Notes under the pieces: generated by a model
Told to the model about the DNA's origin: nothing
Databases searched by the model: none
Seen by the model: only the letters and a program-made list of their open reading frames with translations
Sequence record: NC_054911.1
From: Escherichia phage ECO4
Length of the DNA: 64,000 nt
Direction: 5' to 3' (one strand)
Made by a program: the position numbers and the translations under genes
Part shown: piece by piece, positions 55,176-64,000 of the stretch
Numbering within the stretch: position 1 is the first letter of the stretch
Layout of the letters: the number at the start of each line of letters is the position of its first letter

Positions 55176-55198
55176 CCCTTACCTTAAATAGATAAGGG
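55176..55198 (-). promoter_or_regulatory. Hairpin (CCCTTA / TAAGGG) immediately upstream of the gene 49 start, embedding the SD
   Basis: Seen directly; T4 gene 49 translation is known to be modulated by an upstream hairpin. Confidence 0.4.
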
Positions 55199-55208
55199 TA
55201 TTTATTAT

Positions 55209-55256
55209 TTTCAAGTATTGTAAAACATTCGATGCAATCGCTTATATTGTCGAATC
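55209..55256 (-). repeat. Direct repeat copy A (48 bp)
   Basis: 45/48 identical to 55422..55469; covers the 3' end of the 58-aa ORF. Confidence 0.85.
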
Positions 55257-55387
55257 ATCTTTTTAGTAGGACGAGAATAGGTTCCTACGCAAGTGGTCAT
55301 ATGAGGGTCCGTAGAATGTCCTTTAATAAAAAGTTTCCAAACCTTACCGCCATTTAACTTTTCAGTATAAACCAATTCGGTTTTCAT
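55211..55387 (-). CDS. Small ORF (58 aa) whose last 13 aa duplicate the C-terminus of the downstream 161-aa protein
   Basis: Ends ...QYKRLHRMFYNT versus ...QYKRLNQMFYNT in the neighbour. Confidence 0.4.
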   Translation of the reverse strand: MKTELVYTEKLNGGKVWKLFIKGHSTDPHMTTCVGTYSRPTKKMIRQYKRLHRMFYNT

Positions 55388-55421
55388 TAAAATGTCCTGT
55401 CAGAAAAAGAATTTTGAGTTT

Positions 55422-55469
55422 TTTCAAGTATTGTAAAACATTTGATTCAATCGCTTATATTGCCGAATC
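55422..55469 (-). repeat. Direct repeat copy B (48 bp)
   Basis: Covers the 3' end of ORF 55424..55909. Confidence 0.85.
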
Positions 55470-56241: not shown

Positions 56242-56420
56242 TTAGAAATAGACTTTTCGCCATTAGAATAATAAACTTCGAGTTTAGCACGATTATTTTT
56301 AATTTGAATAACCTTGGCTGTCATCAAAGTTCCATACCCATAATAAACTGCAACCTCATCACCTACATATACCGCGCTTCCGCGGTAGTCATGGATATAA
56401 TCAGTTCCTTCGAGCATCAT
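56205..56420 (-). CDS. Hypothetical protein (71 aa)
   Basis: ORF. Confidence 0.45.
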   Translation of the reverse strand: MMLEGTDYIHDYRGSAVYVGDEVAVYYGYGTLMTAKVIQIKNNRAKLEVYYSNGEKSISKWKYGDCMVKLG

Positions 56421-56680
56421 TTAAAGTATTCCCGCAATTGGTCAAATCCACCAATATGACTTCCATCAGGAGCAAATACCTGGGGCATTGTCAATCCAAT
56501 TTGAGTATCACGACCTAGTTTAGTCAGAAGCTCAGCGATTTTCTCATCATCAAAAACACCTTTTTCCGGCATAATGTTAATAAATTCAAACGGCTGTTTC
56601 TTCACGGTCAAAAGACGTTTTGCATTATCGCAATACACACATTTATGAATGTTGCTATCATAACCATATACTTTAAACAT
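56417..56680 (-). CDS. nrdC: Thioredoxin/glutaredoxin NrdC
   Basis: 87 aa, CVYC active site, matches T4 NrdC. Confidence 0.85.
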   Translation of the reverse strand: MFKVYGYDSNIHKCVYCDNAKRLLTVKKQPFEFINIMPEKGVFDDEKIAELLTKLGRDTQIGLTMPQVFAPDGSHIGGFDQLREYFK

Positions 56681-56681
56681 A

Positions 56682-56924
56682 TTATTCCTTAATTCCTAGT
56701 ACTTGTTTAAAAGTCTCGTCGTAATCAAGACTTTGGCCTGTTTGTTCTTTATGTTTGTATATAATATCACTTACTTCTGATAGCATATTTTTATATGAAC
56801 GAGTTAAAGCAGATTTAAGTACGCTGTACCTATCAGGAAATTTACCATGTTCATTATAATAAGCTATTGCTAATTCACGGACTGCCTTTTCAGCAGCCTC
56901 CATATATTCTTTACGCTTGGTCAT
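56682..56924 (-). CDS. Hypothetical protein (80 aa)
   Basis: ORF. Confidence 0.5.
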
Positions 56925-56926
56925 TT

Positions 56927-57316
56927 TTAATCCAAAATATTATTAGGCATTGGTTGAACACTCACAAGTTCTTTAAAGAACTCAGTAGAGTCAGGCAATT
57001 TAACCATTTCCGGAGCATGCTTACTGAATTTATGTTTACATTGACGGCATTTATATTCAAGCTCTGGTTTACGCCAGTTAATCAACTGAACTTGTTCAGT
57101 ACCGCATTCAGGGCAATTAGGAACGTTTTTAGAAGCTCTTTCACGTCGTTCAACCATAGCCATAATAGCATCCCATGCTGGAGGTTTAAAATCTAAATCA
57201 TCGCAGCCGTGAATCTTTCCACGCATTTCCATATCATCTTCCTCACCAGCCATAATAATTTTAATTAGACTAGAATTACTTGAAGCTGCAATGTCTTCTA
57301 ATAAACGCTTTTTCAT
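56927..57316 (-). CDS. Zinc-ribbon protein (129 aa; CPECG...CRQCKH)
   Basis: Two CxxC pairs; ATGA coupling to upstream gene. Confidence 0.55.
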
Positions 57317-58242
57317 TTCAATACCTCAATAGCATTACGTAAACCATTTGCTTTGGCGGTTAAAGCCTTAAGAACTTTAGTATGCTCTTCAATTTGTTTT
57401 TCAACTTCAGTCAAACGGGCATTGAGATATTCACGTTCTTCACCCAGATTATCAACCTTTTCTACTTTAGGCTCTTTTACAACTGTCTTATATGTATTAG
57501 GGTTCTTCAGTTTAATTAGAATGCGTGAACTGTATAACATTGAACCATTATCTTCGGTTTCGTCATACATTTCCACTACGTCCATAATTTTTAACATCAT
57601 GCGGAGTTTATAAGACAACGAACGAATAGTTTTGTTGTGCTTATTAATTTCTTTAGCTGTCATGGTGCCGAGATTACGTGAGTAATAATAAGGAACCTGG
57701 ATATTAATTAATACTGATGAACCACCTGGCTTGTGTGTTACTTCATCAGCAATAACCCAATCCTTAACATGAACTGTATTTGTACGGTCATCGCCCGCGG
57801 TAAATAGTTTGCGAGCATGCTTAAAAAGCATATTCACTTGGTCATTGAATTGACAAGCAAATTTATCAGCAAATTTAGTTTCAGGAATGGTAGATAACCA
57901 ATCAGCCAAATGGGTCTTTTTAACATCGTTAACAATAGTAAATTCAACCAAATCGGTTATAGATGTCGCAGATTTAATGAAGCTCGGCTTCATAAAGTTT
58001 TTAATGTTATCGCGAGCTACGGTAGAAGATAACATACGAGAACGTTTAAACCATTCAAGCAAATTGCCTAACGAATGAGAATAAGCGTTTTGAGTATCTT
58101 TACAGATATGATTTTCCTGGCCAACATATTGAAGGAAATCACGAAGAATATTATTGATTACTGCTCTGTGCCCGATCTGATAATTACGGTGTTTAGTAAT
58201 AAGACTGTCAAAATAATCAATATAATGTTTACGAGTTTTCAT
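57313..58242 (-). CDS. Paralog family member 1 (309 aa) with C-terminal coiled coil
   Basis: N-terminus MKTRKHYIDYF..., C-terminal heptad-rich ...[31 protein letters not shown]. Confidence 0.65.
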   Translation of the reverse strand: MKTRKHYIDYFDSLITKHRNYQIGHRAVINNILRDFLQYVGQENHICKDTQNAYSHSLGNLLEWFKRSRMLSSTVARDNIKNFMKPSFIKSATSITDLVEFTIVNDVKKTHLADWLSTIPETKFADKFACQFNDQVNMLFKHARKLFTAGDDRTNTVHVKDWVIADEVTHKPGGSSVLINIQVPYYYSRNLGTMTAKEINKHNKTIRSLSYKLRMMLKIMDVVEMYDETEDNGSMLYSSRILIKLKNPNTYKTVVKEPKVEKVDNLGEEREYLNARLTEVEKQIEEHTKVLKALTAKANGLRNAIEVLK

Positions 58243-58294
58243 GTTCTTCTCACTTGGTTAATGATTTATACTCCGAGCCATCCTTGGCTTTAAA

Positions 58295-59296
58295 TTACTT
58301 AATTAACTGTAAAGCTTGTTCAAGACGATCCAAGCGATTAACAGATTCTTCCCAAATCTTTTTAGCCTTCTCATATTCTTTCTGCGCTTTATTAGAAATT
58401 TCTAGAACTTCTTTATAAGCTTTTTCTAGTGCAACAACTTCTGGACGAATTTCTACCGGTTCAGGTGAATCATCAAGATTATCCATTAGTTCCTCAAGGG
58501 TAGTTTCTTCTTTAGGAGTATTCACAATTTCATCACATTTTTGTTGATAAATTTCTTTATCAGTAGGTGAGTACGCGCACTTTACTTCACGAAGACTAAT
58601 TACAATTTTATATCCTTCCCAACCGCATATATTCTTAAAAGGATATGTATGAATATTTTCTACTGTTTCCATACAAAGTAATGCGGTCTCTAATTGACGA
58701 GTTATAGTGCTAGCAATTGAGAAAAATTTATTAATATTCTTTTGGTTAGTTTCTGGTGTAAAAAATCCATAATTCACAAAAATAGATACTTTATTTTTAT
58801 CAAGTTCATATTCTTTTATGATAATCATATCAGAAGCCAAAGGATGAATTTGACGATAATCGCCATAACATAATTTAGAAGCTGATTTTAGAATCTGTCC
58901 TTTGAAAAGTCTGAAATTACTAATCCAACGACGAGTAAAAATATTCTCAGGGTCTTCTTTATTATTAAGATGATAAGAATTAACATCACCGAACCAATTA
59001 TATCCTACTACATCTTTGGTTCGTTTAATTTCTTTCCCAAAATTACCAAGAATATCCCGATTAACCAAATATGAAAGAAGACGAGACTCTTTAAAGGTTT
59101 TCTTGATAACATCTTTATCTACACGGCTAGAAATTTTACGAATTTCATGAATAAATTTAGTAGAAGAAACAATACTTGCATCAACACTATTGAGCCATTG
59201 ATTGATAATAGAAAGAACGCTATTCTGACTAGACACAGGTTTAACTTTATCATCAATAACGCTATTGAATGATTTGATATATTCGTTACGAGTCAT
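58295..59296 (-). CDS. Paralog family member 2 (333 aa) with C-terminal coiled coil
   Basis: ATG 59296 (MTRNEYIKSF...) with SD GGAG; shared internal motif W..F.LF.GQILKSASKL. Confidence 0.65.
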   Translation of the reverse strand: MTRNEYIKSFNSVIDDKVKPVSSQNSVLSIINQWLNSVDASIVSSTKFIHEIRKISSRVDKDVIKKTFKESRLLSYLVNRDILGNFGKEIKRTKDVVGYNWFGDVNSYHLNNKEDPENIFTRRWISNFRLFKGQILKSASKLCYGDYRQIHPLASDMIIIKEYELDKNKVSIFVNYGFFTPETNQKNINKFFSIASTITRQLETALLCMETVENIHTYPFKNICGWEGYKIVISLREVKCAYSPTDKEIYQQKCDEIVNTPKEETTLEELMDNLDDSPEPVEIRPEVVALEKAYKEVLEISNKAQKEYEKAKKIWEESVNRLDRLEQALQLIK

Positions 59297-59324
59297 AATA
59301 ATCTCCTCAGTAGAAAGTAAGAAC

Positions 59325-59354
59325 ATTATACCACATCCTTGTGGCAAAGTAAAC
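59325..59354 (-). promoter_or_regulatory. T4-type early promoter (GTTTAC, 18 nt, TATAAT with TGG prefix)
   Basis: Near-identical to the 13647..13676 element. Confidence 0.6.
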
Positions 59355-60376
59355 TAGTTCAGTGCATTTAGTGCATTGTTCAGTTTAGAACGTTGCTTCG
59401 TAAGATTTTTGACTTTTTCTTGAGCTTTTTCTAGCATCTTTTCAGCTTCTAGCACTTCATTGGTCACTTTAACGAGTTCATCATCTACTGCCTTAAGAGA
59501 CTTCTCAATCGCATCGGCGTGCCATTTTTCTACAGGTTTAAAATTTGAATTTTCAGTAGGAAGAAAACTCACTTTATTAAGTTTACATGCATCTATATTG
59601 CTTGAGCTATACATCCAAAATTTAGGATCGTTTGATGAGTAATTGGATAAATTTAAGATATCTTGCACTTCCTGCTTTTTCTCTTGCGGGACTTCGTCCT
59701 TTCTCAAAAAATCGTATTTAAATGAAACGATCATATCAAGTTCATATGTTGTTGTGTCTAATTTAAATCGCTCAAAACGAGGTAAAATCTTAGACTGAAC
59801 AGCGGCAACAACATCCATATACTTAAATGCTTCTGTCAACTGCGATTTAAGGCATTCGCAAATTGAAAGAGAATTTTTTGTATTAGGTTTAAAGCTAATT
59901 CGCGCAGTTCTGTTATTTTCTTTTAATGGTCTTACTTCCATCTGAAGAGTATAACCATCAAATTTCAGGTTCTTTAAGTTAATGTCAGAACCTTTTAATC
60001 GACTAGCAGTCGACAAAATTTGCTTTAATTGTCTACGGAACAGAGCAATAAATCTCCATTCAATACGATAATGATTTGGATTGAAAAATCCAGATGATAA
60101 ATCGACCTTACTTTGACCAACGCCTTGAACAAATAGAGGATTTTTATAATCAATAGTTTTACAGAAATCTGTGAGCTGCTCACGAGCAGTCATTTGTGTA
60201 ATATACCCCGCTTTACTAAAATTACTCACCCATTCACTGCTATTTAGATATTTAAAGTGATGAATAGCATGATTAACTTTATCAGGGTCTAAATTATTTT
60301 CACACAAAAATGTCATAACATTACGAGTATCGCTGGCAGTACGAACCATATCTTCAATTTGAGAACGAGTTTTCAT
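59354..60376 (-). CDS. Paralog family member 3 (340 aa) with C-terminal coiled coil
   Basis: N-terminus MKTRSQIEDMV...; motif WRFIALFRRQLKQILSTASRL; SD AAGGA. Confidence 0.65.
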   Translation of the reverse strand: MKTRSQIEDMVRTASDTRNVMTFLCENNLDPDKVNHAIHHFKYLNSSEWVSNFSKAGYITQMTAREQLTDFCKTIDYKNPLFVQGVGQSKVDLSSGFFNPNHYRIEWRFIALFRRQLKQILSTASRLKGSDINLKNLKFDGYTLQMEVRPLKENNRTARISFKPNTKNSLSICECLKSQLTEAFKYMDVVAAVQSKILPRFERFKLDTTTYELDMIVSFKYDFLRKDEVPQEKKQEVQDILNLSNYSSNDPKFWMYSSSNIDACKLNKVSFLPTENSNFKPVEKWHADAIEKSLKAVDDELVKVTNEVLEAEKMLEKAQEKVKNLTKQRSKLNNALNALN

Positions 60377-60384
60377 GGTATTCC

Positions 60385-61275
60385 TTAAGATTTAAGTAAA
60401 TCGACAATTTTAATTAACTTTTCACGCTCAGATTTAGCTTTACTACTCAATCCAGATAGTCTGAAAATTTCATCATCATATTGTTGAATAGAAACATTCA
60501 GCTCTTCAATCTGTTTATTAAAATAATCAATTTGTTCAAAATGTTTTTCGTTACTATGAACTGGTACAGGTTTTGTAGGCAATGTAGTTGAACTGGATTC
60601 ATCCGGGCGATAAATTAAAATACAACTTGAACCAATAGGGCATTTTGCACCAGATGAATATTCTAATGTTCCAGATTCTTTTAAAACTTCAAAAGCTAAA
60701 CAGAGATGATGCCCCATATTAACATAATCTGTAGAGTGAGCTCTGATGTAATAATCATCGCCACGAGTACTAAATTTAAAGCATTTAAGGTCTTCTGTAT
60801 TATTAGTCTTAAAAATCATTTGTTTATCTAGACCTTTAGCTAATCGAGCGCCTAATGCTAATAATCGTCTTTGATTTTCCCACAAATCCGCAATCATTTG
60901 ATCGAATGATAATTTTGGCATTAGTCGACCATAAAGGTCATATCCTTTATTATAATTACGAAGGATTTCACTCGCGTTAATACGAGACAATGCTCCAATT
61001 TTATTAAGGGCTTTCATAATGCGATTAGATAAACTCATTCCAGACCCATTTGTTCGCTGCAAATGTTTTTCTAATCCAAATCCAATATCAACTTTAAACT
61101 TATCTAAAATTTCTGCATGAACATCTCTGTCAATAACATTCAAATCCAAAGTTGGGTTAAATCTATGAAAAAATTTATCCGGCTCTCCACGGCGAAATAC
61201 AGTCCATTCATTCATCATTTTTTTATTAACTAAAGATTTAATTACTGCATTGACATTATTAATTACTACTGACAT
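60385..61275 (-). CDS. Paralog family member 4 (296 aa) with C-terminal coiled coil
   Basis: ATG 61275 with SD GAGGAAAAT; motif LWENQRRLLALGARLAKGL. Confidence 0.6.
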   Translation of the reverse strand: MSVVINNVNAVIKSLVNKKMMNEWTVFRRGEPDKFFHRFNPTLDLNVIDRDVHAEILDKFKVDIGFGLEKHLQRTNGSGMSLSNRIMKALNKIGALSRINASEILRNYNKGYDLYGRLMPKLSFDQMIADLWENQRRLLALGARLAKGLDKQMIFKTNNTEDLKCFKFSTRGDDYYIRAHSTDYVNMGHHLCLAFEVLKESGTLEYSSGAKCPIGSSCILIYRPDESSSTTLPTKPVPVHSNEKHFEQIDYFNKQIEELNVSIQQYDDEIFRLSGLSSKAKSEREKLIKIVDLLKS

Positions 61276-61282
61276 ATTTTCC

Positions 61283-61684
61283 TCACTCAATTTTACTAAT
61301 TACGCGAAATAAGATTGAACAGACTATATAAGTACCGCATATAGACTGAACTAATGCCATTCCAAAGAACCAAATAATATTATCAAACCATGTCTGTTTT
61401 ACGTCGAAAGGACGTAAACTTACAGTAATATTATCACCTTTTTCTATTGAAGAATACATCTCTGGGGAAATATATTCACTAAATCTATAACCGTCTTTGA
61501 GTTCATATACGGCAATAAACGATAAACTAGACCCTTTTCCTTGTGTTCCTGTAATGGTATTAACTACAGTAACATCATAATCTTTATAATGCATATAATC
61601 ATTAATTGCGTAATAACCATATGCAATTACTACACATAAACAACATATCAATAAATTCAATCTTTTAATTATCAACTGTTTCAT
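61283..61684 (-). CDS. Membrane protein (133 aa, N- and C-terminal TM segments)
   Basis: Hydrophobic LNLLICCLCVVIAYGYY and IIWFFGMALVQSICGTYIVCSILF. Confidence 0.6.
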   Translation of the reverse strand: MKQLIIKRLNLLICCLCVVIAYGYYAINDYMHYKDYDVTVVNTITGTQGKGSSLSFIAVYELKDGYRFSEYISPEMYSSIEKGDNITVSLRPFDVKQTWFDNIIWFFGMALVQSICGTYIVCSILFRVISKIE

Positions 61685-61739
61685 AATAATCTCAATTAAA
61701 AGGGCTTAGAACCATTATACCATCCTTGGTATAAAGCGG

Positions 61740-62267
61740 TTATGCGAGTACCGTCTTTAACCGTTCTTCAAACTTCCGAAGAGTATTTTGGCGTTCAGCT
61801 CTTTGCTTTTTGTAAGTTTCAATACGCTCTGAAATGAGAGTGTATCGTTCATTTACTGATTCTTTCATAAAATCAGGAATTTGACGAGAAGCTTTAATCT
61901 CGTCAAATTTATCAATAACAGCTTGCTCTTCAGCAATTAAGTTATCATACATTAAAATATCTTTCTTGATGAACTCAATATCTTCTTGAGTTACACGAGA
62001 TAATTTAGATGCTTTATCCTTTTTGTACTGTTCGTTAGTATCACGAGACCAGTGTAATGTACGATTTTTATTCGTATTCTTATAAATTTCTACAATACCA
62101 ATCTCATCAATAATAACGATCCAATTCCAACGGGATTTGTAAATTTGTCCTCCATCAACAGTGATTTCACCTCCGATTGAGATGTCATTAAAGAACTTGC
62201 TTTGTGCTTCAGATTTAAATTTACCATCGTTGTAATTTACCAAGTTGAAAATATCTTTAGCGTTCAT
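61740..62267 (-). CDS. Hypothetical protein (175 aa), coiled-coil C-terminus
   Basis: SD GGAGGAACAG before ATG; downstream of an early promoter. Confidence 0.6.
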   Translation of the reverse strand: MNAKDIFNLVNYNDGKFKSEAQSKFFNDISIGGEITVDGGQIYKSRWNWIVIIDEIGIVEIYKNTNKNRTLHWSRDTNEQYKKDKASKLSRVTQEDIEFIKKDILMYDNLIAEEQAVIDKFDEIKASRQIPDFMKESVNERYTLISERIETYKKQRAERQNTLRKFEERLKTVLA

Positions 62268-62293
62268 TTTCTGTTCCTCCGTAGTTGATAGTT

Positions 62294-62325
62294 GTATAGT
62301 ACCACAGAGGAACAGTCTTGTAAAC
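62294..62325 (-). promoter_or_regulatory. T4-type early promoter
   Basis: GTTTACA ... TGGTACTATAC; near-identical to 8858..8890. Confidence 0.55.
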
Positions 62326-62327
62326 CA

Positions 62328-62642
62328 CTAAAAGAAACTTCTTTCACAATTTTTTCCACTGAACCAGGCGCTCACTGCTTTCTTGGTCTCAGGAGCAGTG
62401 TTATCCATAAACCATTCAAAGGCAGCCTTTTTATGATTCTGGAGGGCTTCTCGGGCTTTAATCTGCTCACGGTCTATTAACACTAACATATGAGCCTTTC
62501 TTGTCACCATGGGCTTCTTATGATTTTTTGAATACTCCCAGTCATTTGTCCATCGCATTGTTGTTGCGAACTGAAATACTGCTTCTTTAATTTTAGTTTC
62601 GTAAATTTCACGAGCCTTTGAGTATAACATCACTACCTCCAT
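62328..62642 (-). CDS. Hypothetical protein (104 aa)
   Basis: ORF. Confidence 0.55.
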   Translation of the reverse strand: MEVVMLYSKAREIYETKIKEAVFQFATTMRWTNDWEYSKNHKKPMVTRKAHMLVLIDREQIKAREALQNHKKAAFEWFMDNTAPETKKAVSAWFSGKNCERSFF

Positions 62643-62731
62643 TCATCAGTTTAATTCTAGTCATCTTTTTAATGGCAGTCCATATAATCTATTTCTGAAC
62701 TGCCTTTTTGTCATAGAAGTCCTCTTATGAA

Positions 62732-63700
62732 TTATTTCAAAAGAGTAACCTCAGCAATTTCTTCCCAACCGTTTTTGTCGGTCATAATAAAGTCAGCAAG
62801 ATAAAGAGCAGTACGCAGTGAAACATTGCGTAAACGATTAACATTAACTTTCATCCATGATAATGCTTTATAAGTTTCTTCATCAGAAAGACCGCGCTTT
62901 TGCATCATGTCAGTTGAAAGAATAACATCTTCAACCCTGACCATAATTTCTTCATTAGTGTGAACACCCAAATCTAAATAAACCGAGCGGGACACTAATG
63001 CTTGTAAATGTGGAGCAAGTTTAGTACCACGGTCTAATTCGCGGTCAATGTCAACGTTTGTGATAAAAACAATCGTTCCTTTAAATTCAAACTCACGCTC
63101 AATGCCTTTTTCTTCTAAGTAAGAAGACGCAGTGCTCCAGCAGACTTTACGGGTCTCTCCAGTGTCCAGAGCGGCTTTTAGAAGATTAAGAATGTCCATA
63201 TCAGAGAAAACATCTACATCATCAATCAAAAGGACAGAATTCTCTTCACGATTATTCCAAAGCTGCTCATAAAGACCAATACCAGAGATTTTACCATTAA
63301 TGCTTTTATATTCAATGTATCCAATATCATTTGCTTTATTTAAAGCTTTATCTAAAGAATACGTTTTACCAATACCTGCTGCGCCAGAGATAATTAATGA
63401 ACGAATATTTCCGTTAATAATACCATTCGTCATCATTCCCATAACATTAAATCTTTTATTAATGCGGGTTTTCATATCTTCATATGATTCTTTAACTTCT
63501 TCAACTTTTACACCATCATATGAAATATCTGATTTGTAAACCCAAACACCGCGACGTTTACCGTCAATTTCAACAAAAACTTTACCATCTCCTTGTGCAT
63601 CTACCGGAGCATTATCTGGGAACCATTCGCCTAAGAGCTCAAAAGTTCCAGAGATTTCTTTACCGAAGTAGATACCCTTATTGATAGTTACAGTTTTCAT
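62732..63700 (-). CDS. P-loop NTPase (322 aa)
   Basis: Walker A GAAGIGKT and Walker B-like LLIDDVD; ATG 63700 with SD GGAG. Confidence 0.65.
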   Translation of the reverse strand: MKTVTINKGIYFGKEISGTFELLGEWFPDNAPVDAQGDGKVFVEIDGKRRGVWVYKSDISYDGVKVEEVKESYEDMKTRINKRFNVMGMMTNGIINGNIRSLIISGAAGIGKTYSLDKALNKANDIGYIEYKSINGKISGIGLYEQLWNNREENSVLLIDDVDVFSDMDILNLLKAALDTGETRKVCWSTASSYLEEKGIEREFEFKGTIVFITNVDIDRELDRGTKLAPHLQALVSRSVYLDLGVHTNEEIMVRVEDVILSTDMMQKRGLSDEETYKALSWMKVNVNRLRNVSLRTALYLADFIMTDKNGWEEIAEVTLLK

Positions 63701-63732
63701 TTTATTCTCCAAATCCGTATCAGTTGATAGTT

Positions 63733-63764
63733 GTATAGTACCATAAAGCTTTATGCTTGTAAAC
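63733..63764 (-). promoter_or_regulatory. T4-type early promoter (third copy of the cassette)
   Basis: GTTTACA ... TGGTACTATAC with UP-like A/T tract. Confidence 0.55.
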
Positions 63765-63794
63765 CGTTTTGTGAAAAAATTTTGAAATAAAAAA

Positions 63795-63813
63795 GGGAGC
63801 CCGAAGGCTCCCT
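63795..63813 (-). terminator. Rho-independent terminator (GGGAGCC-TTCG-GGCTCCC then T6)
   Basis: Stem-loop plus U-run on minus strand. Confidence 0.6.
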
Positions 63814-63814
63814 A

Positions 63815-63997
63815 TCATTTATAATAACTTCGATGGTTTTCAAGATAAACCCTCTCAAGGAAGTCATCCCAGAAACCCATGTCTACTTTTTGCTGCATAC
63901 CGTTCTTAGAAGCTTCAATGGATGCTGCTTCTACTTGATCGACCACATCTTCCAAAAACTCTTGAACAGTTTTAAATGGATGTTTACCCAACTTCAC
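63815..63997 (-). CDS. Hypothetical acidic protein (60 aa)
   Basis: ORF at right edge of window. Confidence 0.45.
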   Translation of the reverse strand: MKLGKHPFKTVQEFLEDVVDQVEAASIEASKNGMQQKVDMGFWDDFLERVYLENHRSYYK

Positions 63998-64000
63998 GTC

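Follow-up and report, generated by a model that had tools for sequence, protein, structure and literature searches.

The nrdC.3 to nrdC.6 genes of T4-like phage ECO4 belong to one superfamily, with a candidate role in blocking host immune sensors

The locus and its genes

Escherichia phage ECO4 (NC_054911.1) has, in the stretch of 64,000 nucleotides that we analysed (the window), an array of four consecutive minus-strand genes, nrdC.3, nrdC.4, nrdC.5 and nrdC.6, and it is these genes and their products that we discuss here. The window DNA is, by sequence match, that of a Tequatrovirus, or T4-like phage: by megablast positions 56400-64000 match 757 phage records, the closest being 96-97% identical along the whole interval, and nearly all are Tequatrovirus records, from T4-like phages of Escherichia, Shigella and Yersinia. 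The region around the array is an uninterrupted series of minus-strand open reading frames (ORFs). The gene order in T4 and T4-named records is nrdC, nrdC.1 through nrdC.10 and nrdC.11, and that of the window matches it, with the same order between nrdC.2 and nrdC.7 also in T4T and vB_Eco_NR1. Because the order matches that of the T4-named records, the four array genes are orthologues of T4 nrdC.3, nrdC.4, nrdC.5 and nrdC.6. A first-pass annotation of the window, made from the sequence alone, had four consecutive genes at this place with the sizes given below, and expected any T4 homologues to be among the nrdC.x ORFs; the genes are as described, and the T4 counterparts are exactly nrdC.3 to nrdC.6.

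The nrdC.3 gene (57313-58242, minus strand) encodes a protein of 309 amino acids (aa) with 61.5% identity to T4 NrdC.3, and nrdC.4 (58295-59296, minus strand) one of 333 aa with 96.1% identity to T4 NrdC.4, counted from the MTR start; the mechanical ORF begins at a TTG 17 codons upstream. Both are in phrog_1435 (E 1.3e-115 and 9.7e-168 respectively). The nrdC.5 gene (59354-60376, minus strand) encodes 340 aa with 91.8% identity to T4 NrdC.5; it is in phrog_2351 and has a full-length match to PF23882 (DUF7235) at 396.6 bits, the gathering cut-off being 30. The nrdC.6 gene (60385-61275, minus strand) encodes 296 aa from the second Met, with 97.0% identity to T4 NrdC.6, and is in phrog_2257 (E 1.4e-150); its close relatives all carry a precomputed hit to PF26899 (Phage_T4_Y05B). 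PF23882 has no match to nrdC.3, nrdC.4 or nrdC.6, and these are therefore superfamily relatives of DUF7235 rather than members of it.

The four are known T4 genes that have been in the genome record for decades, and for one of them an anti-defence role has been published. What is new is that four genes from separately filed families are unified as one superfamily, with a domain layout and a copy history at one locus, and that nrdC.3, nrdC.4 and nrdC.6 gain the status of candidate counter-defence genes. The overall gain is incremental.

With regard to annotation, many GenBank phage records give nrdC.3 to nrdC.10 the label 'thioredoxin', seemingly inherited from the name prefix nrdC. The thioredoxin families in Pfam have no match to the nrdC.3 to nrdC.10 proteins, and this corrects a widespread misannotation.

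Relationship of the four proteins

Profile comparison and predicted structures together show that nrdC.3 to nrdC.6 are paralogues in one superfamily, with a similarity beyond chance. By BLASTP nrdC.3 and nrdC.4 have 25% identity across 226 residues (E 5e-7), and there is no other link among the four; homologue searches with single proteins and with alignments gave close relatives only. Shallow hhalign profiles with 4-7 sequences per group (orthologues from the window, T4, VR26, JS98 and MN01) linked nrdC.3 and nrdC.4 at 97%, gave a weak hint of a link between nrdC.4 and nrdC.5 and left nrdC.6 unlinked. After addition of more NrdC.5 and NrdC.6 relatives, the link between the joint nrdC.3/nrdC.4 profile (C3/4) and that of nrdC.5 (C5) stood at 90.7%, with E 1.3e-6 across 239 collinear columns.

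The superfamily is tiny: a superfamily profile run against 1.84 billion representative proteins gave only 32 clusters at E <= 1e-3, several of which are full-length distant members, and such members were added to make enlarged profiles. These were compared by hhalign as they stand, with the tail (the last 65 residues) removed, and with reversed alignments as controls. For C3/4 and C5 the probability is 97.4% (E 1e-11), or 96% (E 5e-9) with the tail removed, and the reversed controls gave E 0.5 and 0.28. For C3/4 and the nrdC.6 profile (C6) it is 95.5% (E 1.6e-8), or 84% (E 8e-6) with the tail removed, with controls at E 0.73 and 0.24, and for C5 and C6 it is 95.9% (E 5.7e-9), or 82% (E 1e-5), with controls at E 0.22 and 0.65. 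The nrdC.6 link surfaced only when distant members were in the profiles, and nrdC.6 is the most diverged member of the family. The first-pass annotation had proposed that the four genes are paralogues, with pairwise alignment as the check. That proposal holds: nrdC.3 and nrdC.4 are related by BLASTP, and all group pairs by the enlarged profiles at 95-97% (E 1e-11 to 6e-9 for the pairs that include C5), the reversed controls being at E 0.2-0.7.

Two further comparisons join the groups. The single-copy protein of Enterobacter phage IME523, which is in no profile, matches all three group profiles (9e-12, 1e-9 and 2e-19). There is also a chain of matches in which the strict C3/C4 profile finds a Marfa-type protein over its full length at 41.8 bits, the Marfa-type protein finds an IME523-type protein (tblastn, 2e-9), this in turn finds P0174 (tblastn, 4e-13), and P0174 matches the strict C6 profile at 35.8 bits across 170 positions.

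Of the three features by which the first-pass annotation had recognised the family, the heptad-rich C-terminal helix is indeed in all four proteins. The MKTR/MTR N-terminus is in three of them, with nrdC.6 beginning MSVVINN, and the internal motif W..F.LF..Q.L...AS+L is strict only in nrdC.4 (WISNFRLFKGQILKSASKL, residue 124) and nrdC.5 (WRFIALFRRQLKQILSTASRL, residue 107), being degenerate in nrdC.3 (FACQFNDQVNMLFKHARKL) and only remote in nrdC.6 (LWENQRRLLALGARLA). A second collinear motif, [ST]xx[AN]xxx[LI]x[NDK][FY]xK, is present in all four, at residues 72, 75, 60 and 97.

Predicted structures and domain layout

For each of the two AlphaFold models, of nrdC.5 (m7215416ddae4) and of nrdC.6, the input was an alignment of that protein's family and no other, which excludes a bias of one model by the other. 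In the nrdC.5 model a helix pair (105-115 and 117-128) is followed by a first beta-hairpin (144-149 and 157-162), a middle helix (169-185) and a second beta-hairpin (190-201 and 209-219). The nrdC.6 model has its helix pair at 124-133 and 135-147, its first hairpin at 166-171 and 174-179, its middle helix at 184-200 and its second hairpin at 205-211 and 217-222, and the residue offsets between the two models are consistent with the profile alignment. A linker follows, which is disordered in nrdC.5 (pLDDT <50 at 227-281) and of low confidence in nrdC.6 (227-242), and then the C-terminal helix, at 282-339 in nrdC.5 and at 242-272 and 278-295 in nrdC.6.

The predicted layout in nrdC.5 and nrdC.6 thus begins with helices at the N-terminus, continues with an alpha/beta core and a disordered linker, and ends in a long C-terminal helix. 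The core of nrdC.5 (residues 100-225; 59702-60079, minus strand), with the order H-H-E-E-H-E-E, is the best-predicted part of its model. Its C-terminal helix (residues 282-340; 59357-59533, minus strand) is single, long and heptad-rich, by model and heptad scan, and is presumed to be a coiled coil for oligomerisation. We assign the same layout to nrdC.3 and nrdC.4 by their profile alignments and by heptad scan. We regard a fold common to nrdC.5 and nrdC.6 as well supported, with Foldseek cross-hits that are not significant. As a guide for mutagenesis, the layout marks off a core that is conserved, an N-terminus and a linker that are variable, and the coiled-coil tail.

It could be argued that nrdC.6 is no true paralogue, and that its likeness to the others comes from the common coiled-coil tail and chance. 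It has no BLASTP match to the other three, its E values with the shallow profiles are about 0.07-0.2, and the nrdC.5 and nrdC.6 models give no significant cross-hit in BFVD. However with the enlarged profiles nrdC.6 is linked at 95.5-95.9%, and still at 82-84% when the tail is removed, the alignment covering the helix motifs and not the coiled coil. The order of elements in its AlphaFold model is identical to that of nrdC.5, it carries the second motif, and the IME523 protein matches its profile along with those of the other two groups. We consider this alternative very improbable.

Residues 30-86 of nrdC.3 (57985-58152, minus strand) weakly resemble the SAM-like domain at the N-terminus of tyrosine recombinases (E 0.0016 in NCBIfam and 0.074 with Phage_int_SAM_1 of Pfam), and both matches are far under the cut-offs. 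The similarity is probably that of a generic helical bundle.

Distribution and divergence

All the loci examined have the family at one constant position, beside nrdC.2 in the interval from nrdC to nrdC.11. There are four copies in Tequatrovirus (window and T4), three (nrdC.4, nrdC.5 and nrdC.6) in both Gaprivervirus (VR26 and MN01) and Dhakavirus (JS98), and one in Kanagawavirus (IME523) and in Marfavirus (Marfa). Comparison across T-even genomes, as the first-pass annotation had proposed, therefore gives a fixed locus with 1, 3 or 4 copies. The family was seen only in T4-like phages of Enterobacterales, with distant members also in those of Klebsiella, Citrobacter, Salmonella, Pectobacterium and Edwardsiella, and profile and homologue searches found no native-looking members in cellular genomes. 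nrdC.4 and nrdC.5 are each in about 550 phage records, mostly of Tequatrovirus at 88-97% identity.

The family evolves much faster than the neighbouring genes, judged by identities between the Tequatrovirus loci and those of JS98, VR26 and MN01 (unless another phage is named). These are 22-27% for nrdC.5, 43-52% for nrdC.4 and 48-50% for nrdC.6. Among the neighbours, nrdC.8 is at 66-69%, nrdC.1 at 72-80% (55% in Marfa), and nrdC.10 at 75-78% in JS98 and IME523. Within Tequatrovirus the window orthologues are 92-97% identical to those of T4, save for nrdC.3 at 61.5%, and nrdC.5 has no changes from T4 across residues 51-208.

Identity to T4 is only about 61% for nrdC.2 (129 aa in the window, 104 aa in T4, with CxxC pairs of zinc-ribbon type) and likewise for nrdC.3, and the genes that flank this block (56927-58242, minus strand) are 96-100% identical to T4. 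On these identities nrdC.2-nrdC.3 looks like a swapped allele block within a T4-like region.

Rearranged forms of the genes are found in public assemblies. In P0056 nrdC.4 is deleted, and the middle of NrdC.5 runs on into the C-terminal half of NrdC.3; P0184 has a short product made of the NrdC.5 N-terminus and the final 12 residues of NrdC.4; and in P0156 the coiled-coil tail of NrdC.5 (96% identity) follows an unrelated N-terminus of 115 aa. In Shigella phage Sf25 about 80 residues are duplicated in tandem within NrdC.6.

Proposed function

Srikant, Guegler and Laub (eLife 2022, PMC9391042) evolved T4 on toxIN cells, and found that a T4 deletion clone plates again on MG1655 with the dsr1 of ECOR17 when T4 nrdC.5, which they name as an early gene, is expressed. 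They assayed T4 nrdC.5 only, and described no mechanism and no family. In E. coli Dsr1 the phage major capsid protein is the trigger and the TPR sensor is homologous to the one in Avs7, and Dsr1 shares this capsid-sensing domain with a very large set of immune proteins in bacteria (2026 preprint, PMC12803255); another paper of 2026 terms DSR1 'poorly characterized'. In searches of the literature for how nrdC.5 acts, or for the other three genes, Srikant et al. 2022 was the only relevant paper to come up, and the escape of T4 from Dsr1 is known solely as a gene name, nrdC.5. The first-pass annotation had the array as of unknown function but of a kind typical of host takeover or anti-defence. 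The first part is out of date for nrdC.5, which overcomes Dsr1, and agrees with what we found for the other three; the second is plausible, and is published for T4 nrdC.5 and only for that gene (PMC9391042).

We suggest that the family is one of early-expressed inhibitors of host immune sensors that has grown by tandem duplication, with nrdC.5 acting against Dsr1, and think this somewhat better than an even prospect. A single gene beside nrdC.2 would have given rise by tandem duplication to four fast-evolving, phage-restricted copies, of which the nrdC.5 copy would neutralise Dsr1, a SIR2 NADase with a capsid-triggered TPR sensor. NrdC.5, made early, would bind Dsr1 stoichiometrically before late proteins such as capsid protein accumulate, and so would block either recognition of the capsid protein or activation of the NADase, with the C-terminal coiled coil supplying oligomerisation. 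nrdC.3, nrdC.4 and nrdC.6 would do likewise to other sensors or to other variants of the Dsr1/Avs7 type. The anti-Dsr1 activity of the window allele of nrdC.5 is expected from its likeness to that of T4, and the direct binding of NrdC.5 to Dsr1, the role of the coiled coil and any function of the other three genes are likewise conjectural. The narrow, phage-only range, the variable copy number and the fast divergence fit a counter-defence family, and with the replaced nrdC.3 allele and the small number of clusters they make up an arms-race signature. Because nrdC.5 disarms Dsr1 and nrdC.3, nrdC.4 and nrdC.6 are diverged copies, these three are good candidate defence blockers, ready to be tried as inhibitors of related sensors.

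Several points weigh against this proposal. The experimental support is confined to nrdC.5 and consists of one complementation experiment (PMC9391042), and the anti-defence role of the other three is a candidate one by paralogy. PADLOC, NCBIfam, solved structures and the named Pfam families gave no meaningful match to the array proteins; the profile comparison with defence families that the first-pass annotation had in mind yielded only weak hits of coiled-coil type in PADLOC, to BrxC (E 0.0018) and BrxF (E 0.036). The models are moderate (mean pLDDT 64 and 70), and in Foldseek searches neither model retrieves the family of the other at a significant E; the only cross-family hit is of the nrdC.6 model to an NrdC.5-type protein of vB_EcoM_005, at a non-significant E of 0.42. 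Finally the repeated diversification noted in the first-pass annotation is real between paralogues and between phage genera but not between close strains: the cores within Tequatrovirus are nearly invariant, and the orthologues, nrdC.3 excepted, are as close to T4 as given above.

In another reading nrdC.5 is the sole anti-defence copy, and the others are neutral or decaying duplicates or have unrelated accessory roles, for example host takeover by binding of host proteins. The searched literature held no data on these three genes, nrdC.3 is missing in Dhakavirus and Gaprivervirus, there is a single copy in Kanagawavirus and Marfavirus, and the rearranged genes of public assemblies (P0056, P0184 and P0079), with fusions, truncations and an internal duplication, could be read in the same way. 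However all four ORFs of the array are intact, nrdC.4 is as frequent as nrdC.5 in phage records, and the identities of 43-52% for nrdC.4 and nrdC.6 across three genera argue for purifying selection on each copy. We think this reading unlikely, though it deserves to be kept in mind.

The nrdC.5 model raises a third reading, in which the core was taken over from a tail terminator or completion protein, or imitates one, and the paralogues are virion-fold decoys that occupy host sensors for conserved virion proteins. In BFVD the model has many hits to a 'tail completion protein', with probability up to 0.99, and host STAND/TPR receptors have been reported to sense tail terminator, tail tube and capsid proteins (PMC12803255). 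Against this, Dsr1 is known to be triggered by the major capsid protein and not by a tail protein, the nrdC.6 model has no tail-protein matches in its top 50 BFVD hits, and Pfam, PHROG and PDB sequence searches give no sequence-level match to tail proteins. The tail-terminator scores are also modest, with other two-layer alpha/beta domains scoring nearly as well. We regard this reading as quite unlikely. A more specific version, which is speculative and decidedly unlikely, has early-made decoys with a tail-terminator-like core, multivalent by way of the coiled coil, that plug TPR-type sensors (of Dsr1/Avs7 type and possibly tail-sensing Avs), each paralogue being tuned to a different sensor. 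If this version were true, the array would counter, in a general way, the detection of conserved phage structural proteins by bacteria.

Neighbouring genes and other features of the region

The first-pass annotation also noted a membrane protein with two transmembrane segments and a Walker A/B NTPase just upstream of the array. Both are there, as nrdC.7 and nrdC.10, with nrdC.8 and nrdC.9 between them. nrdC.7 (61283-61684, minus strand) encodes a small membrane protein with two hydrophobic segments by hydropathy; the family profiles do not match it, so it is not a family member, and among the loci compared it is in Tequatrovirus only. nrdC.10 (62732-63700, minus strand) encodes a putative P-loop/AAA-like NTPase with Walker A GAAGIGKT and Walker B VLLIDD, the best Pfam hit being AAA_14 at 23.5 bits, under the cut-off of 27. 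It is present in T4, JS98 and IME523, and absent from VR26, MN01 and Marfa, all three of which have the family. Its conservation (75-78% in JS98 and IME523) is unusually high for the accessory region.

nrdC.10 is separated from the array by nrdC.8 and nrdC.9. We considered nrdC.8 (61740-62267, minus strand) as a fifth member of the family and rejected it: it has a C-terminal helix, but no match to a family profile and no heptad-rich segment. In BFVD the nrdC.5 model matches a protein of Klebsiella phage KPV15 (probability 0.99, E 2.6e-3) that has 175 aa, as nrdC.8 has.

The array, the NTPase and the nrdC.7 membrane protein might together be a functional module, such as a transport or remodelling machine, and the first-pass annotation had tied them together. 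They are close to each other and on the same strand, and a transcription unit that runs through the array could start upstream of nrdC.10, where there is a terminator-like hairpin and after it a promoter-like site. The distribution of the genes is against it: nrdC.10 is absent from three phages that retain the family and nrdC.7 is confined to Tequatrovirus. nrdC.10 at 75-78% and the family at 22-52% across genera are under different evolutionary regimes. In addition, nrdC.5 alone on a plasmid rescued the deletion phage on Dsr1 cells, although the clone was possibly still nrdC.10+. We give such a module hardly any credence, and reject the NTPase as part of an array system on its distribution. 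As nrdC.10 and nrdC.7 are not co-inherited with the family, and nrdC.8 is not matched by the profiles, the link between array and NTPase is positional only.

There is a promoter-like site (TTTACT-17-TATAAT, with an upstream TG) at 59325-59353 on the minus strand, in the spacer between nrdC.5 and nrdC.4. It comes from a consensus scan only and is a candidate early promoter for nrdC.4; the count of promoter-like sites in the region is no higher than the shuffled expectation. Between nrdC.11 and nrdC.10 there is a strong, GC-rich hairpin (AGGGAGCCTTCGGGCTCCCT; 63794-63813, both strands) that is followed by a T-run on the minus strand and then by a promoter-like site (63763-63735, minus strand); the syntenic hairpin in vB_Eco_NR1 is an annotated terminator.

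Between gene 49 and pin there is a direct repeat of 63 nt with 86% identity (55194-55256 and 55407-55469, spacing 213 nt). It yields an extra ORF of 58 aa (55211-55387, minus strand). The final 14 residues of this ORF (IRQYKRLHRMFYNT) repeat the C-terminal sequence of Pin (IRQYKRLNQMFYNT), and in T4 and vB_Eco_NR1 no ORF is annotated at this place.

Comparison with known systems

The nearest known protein is T4 NrdC.5 (DUF7235, PF23882). The window gene at 59354-60376 is its orthologue, at the same position and with 91.8% identity, whereas nrdC.3, nrdC.4 and nrdC.6 of the window are its remote paralogues, filed elsewhere (phrog_1435 and phrog_2257/PF26899).

For how nrdC.5 may work, the closest analogy is with DSAD1 of an SPbeta-phage, which inhibits the sirtuin defence protein DSR2. 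DSAD1 is a single phage protein that blocks a SIR2 NADase sensor with a late virion protein as its trigger, and nrdC.5 may do likewise. DSR2 responds to the tail tube and Dsr1 to the capsid protein, and the two inhibitors are likened by function, not by sequence or fold. DSAD1 is not known as a coiled-coil protein or as a member of a paralogue array.

The tail terminator and completion proteins (lambda gpU, T5 p142, SPP1 gp17-like and DUF3168) have 4-14% identity and no profile match to nrdC.5. nrdC.5 differs from them also in its place, in the early nrdC-mobD accessory region and outside the tail module, and in having additional helices at its N-terminus as well as a linker and a coiled coil.

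The T4 genes tifA, dmd, adfA and ipI are, like nrdC.5, non-essential accessory genes that widen the host range, each by neutralising one host system (PMC9391042). However their sequences are unrelated to those of the array genes, and none is described as a four-copy paralogue array; tifA, dmd and adfA differ also in being clustered in a separate 'anti-TA island' (PMC9391042).

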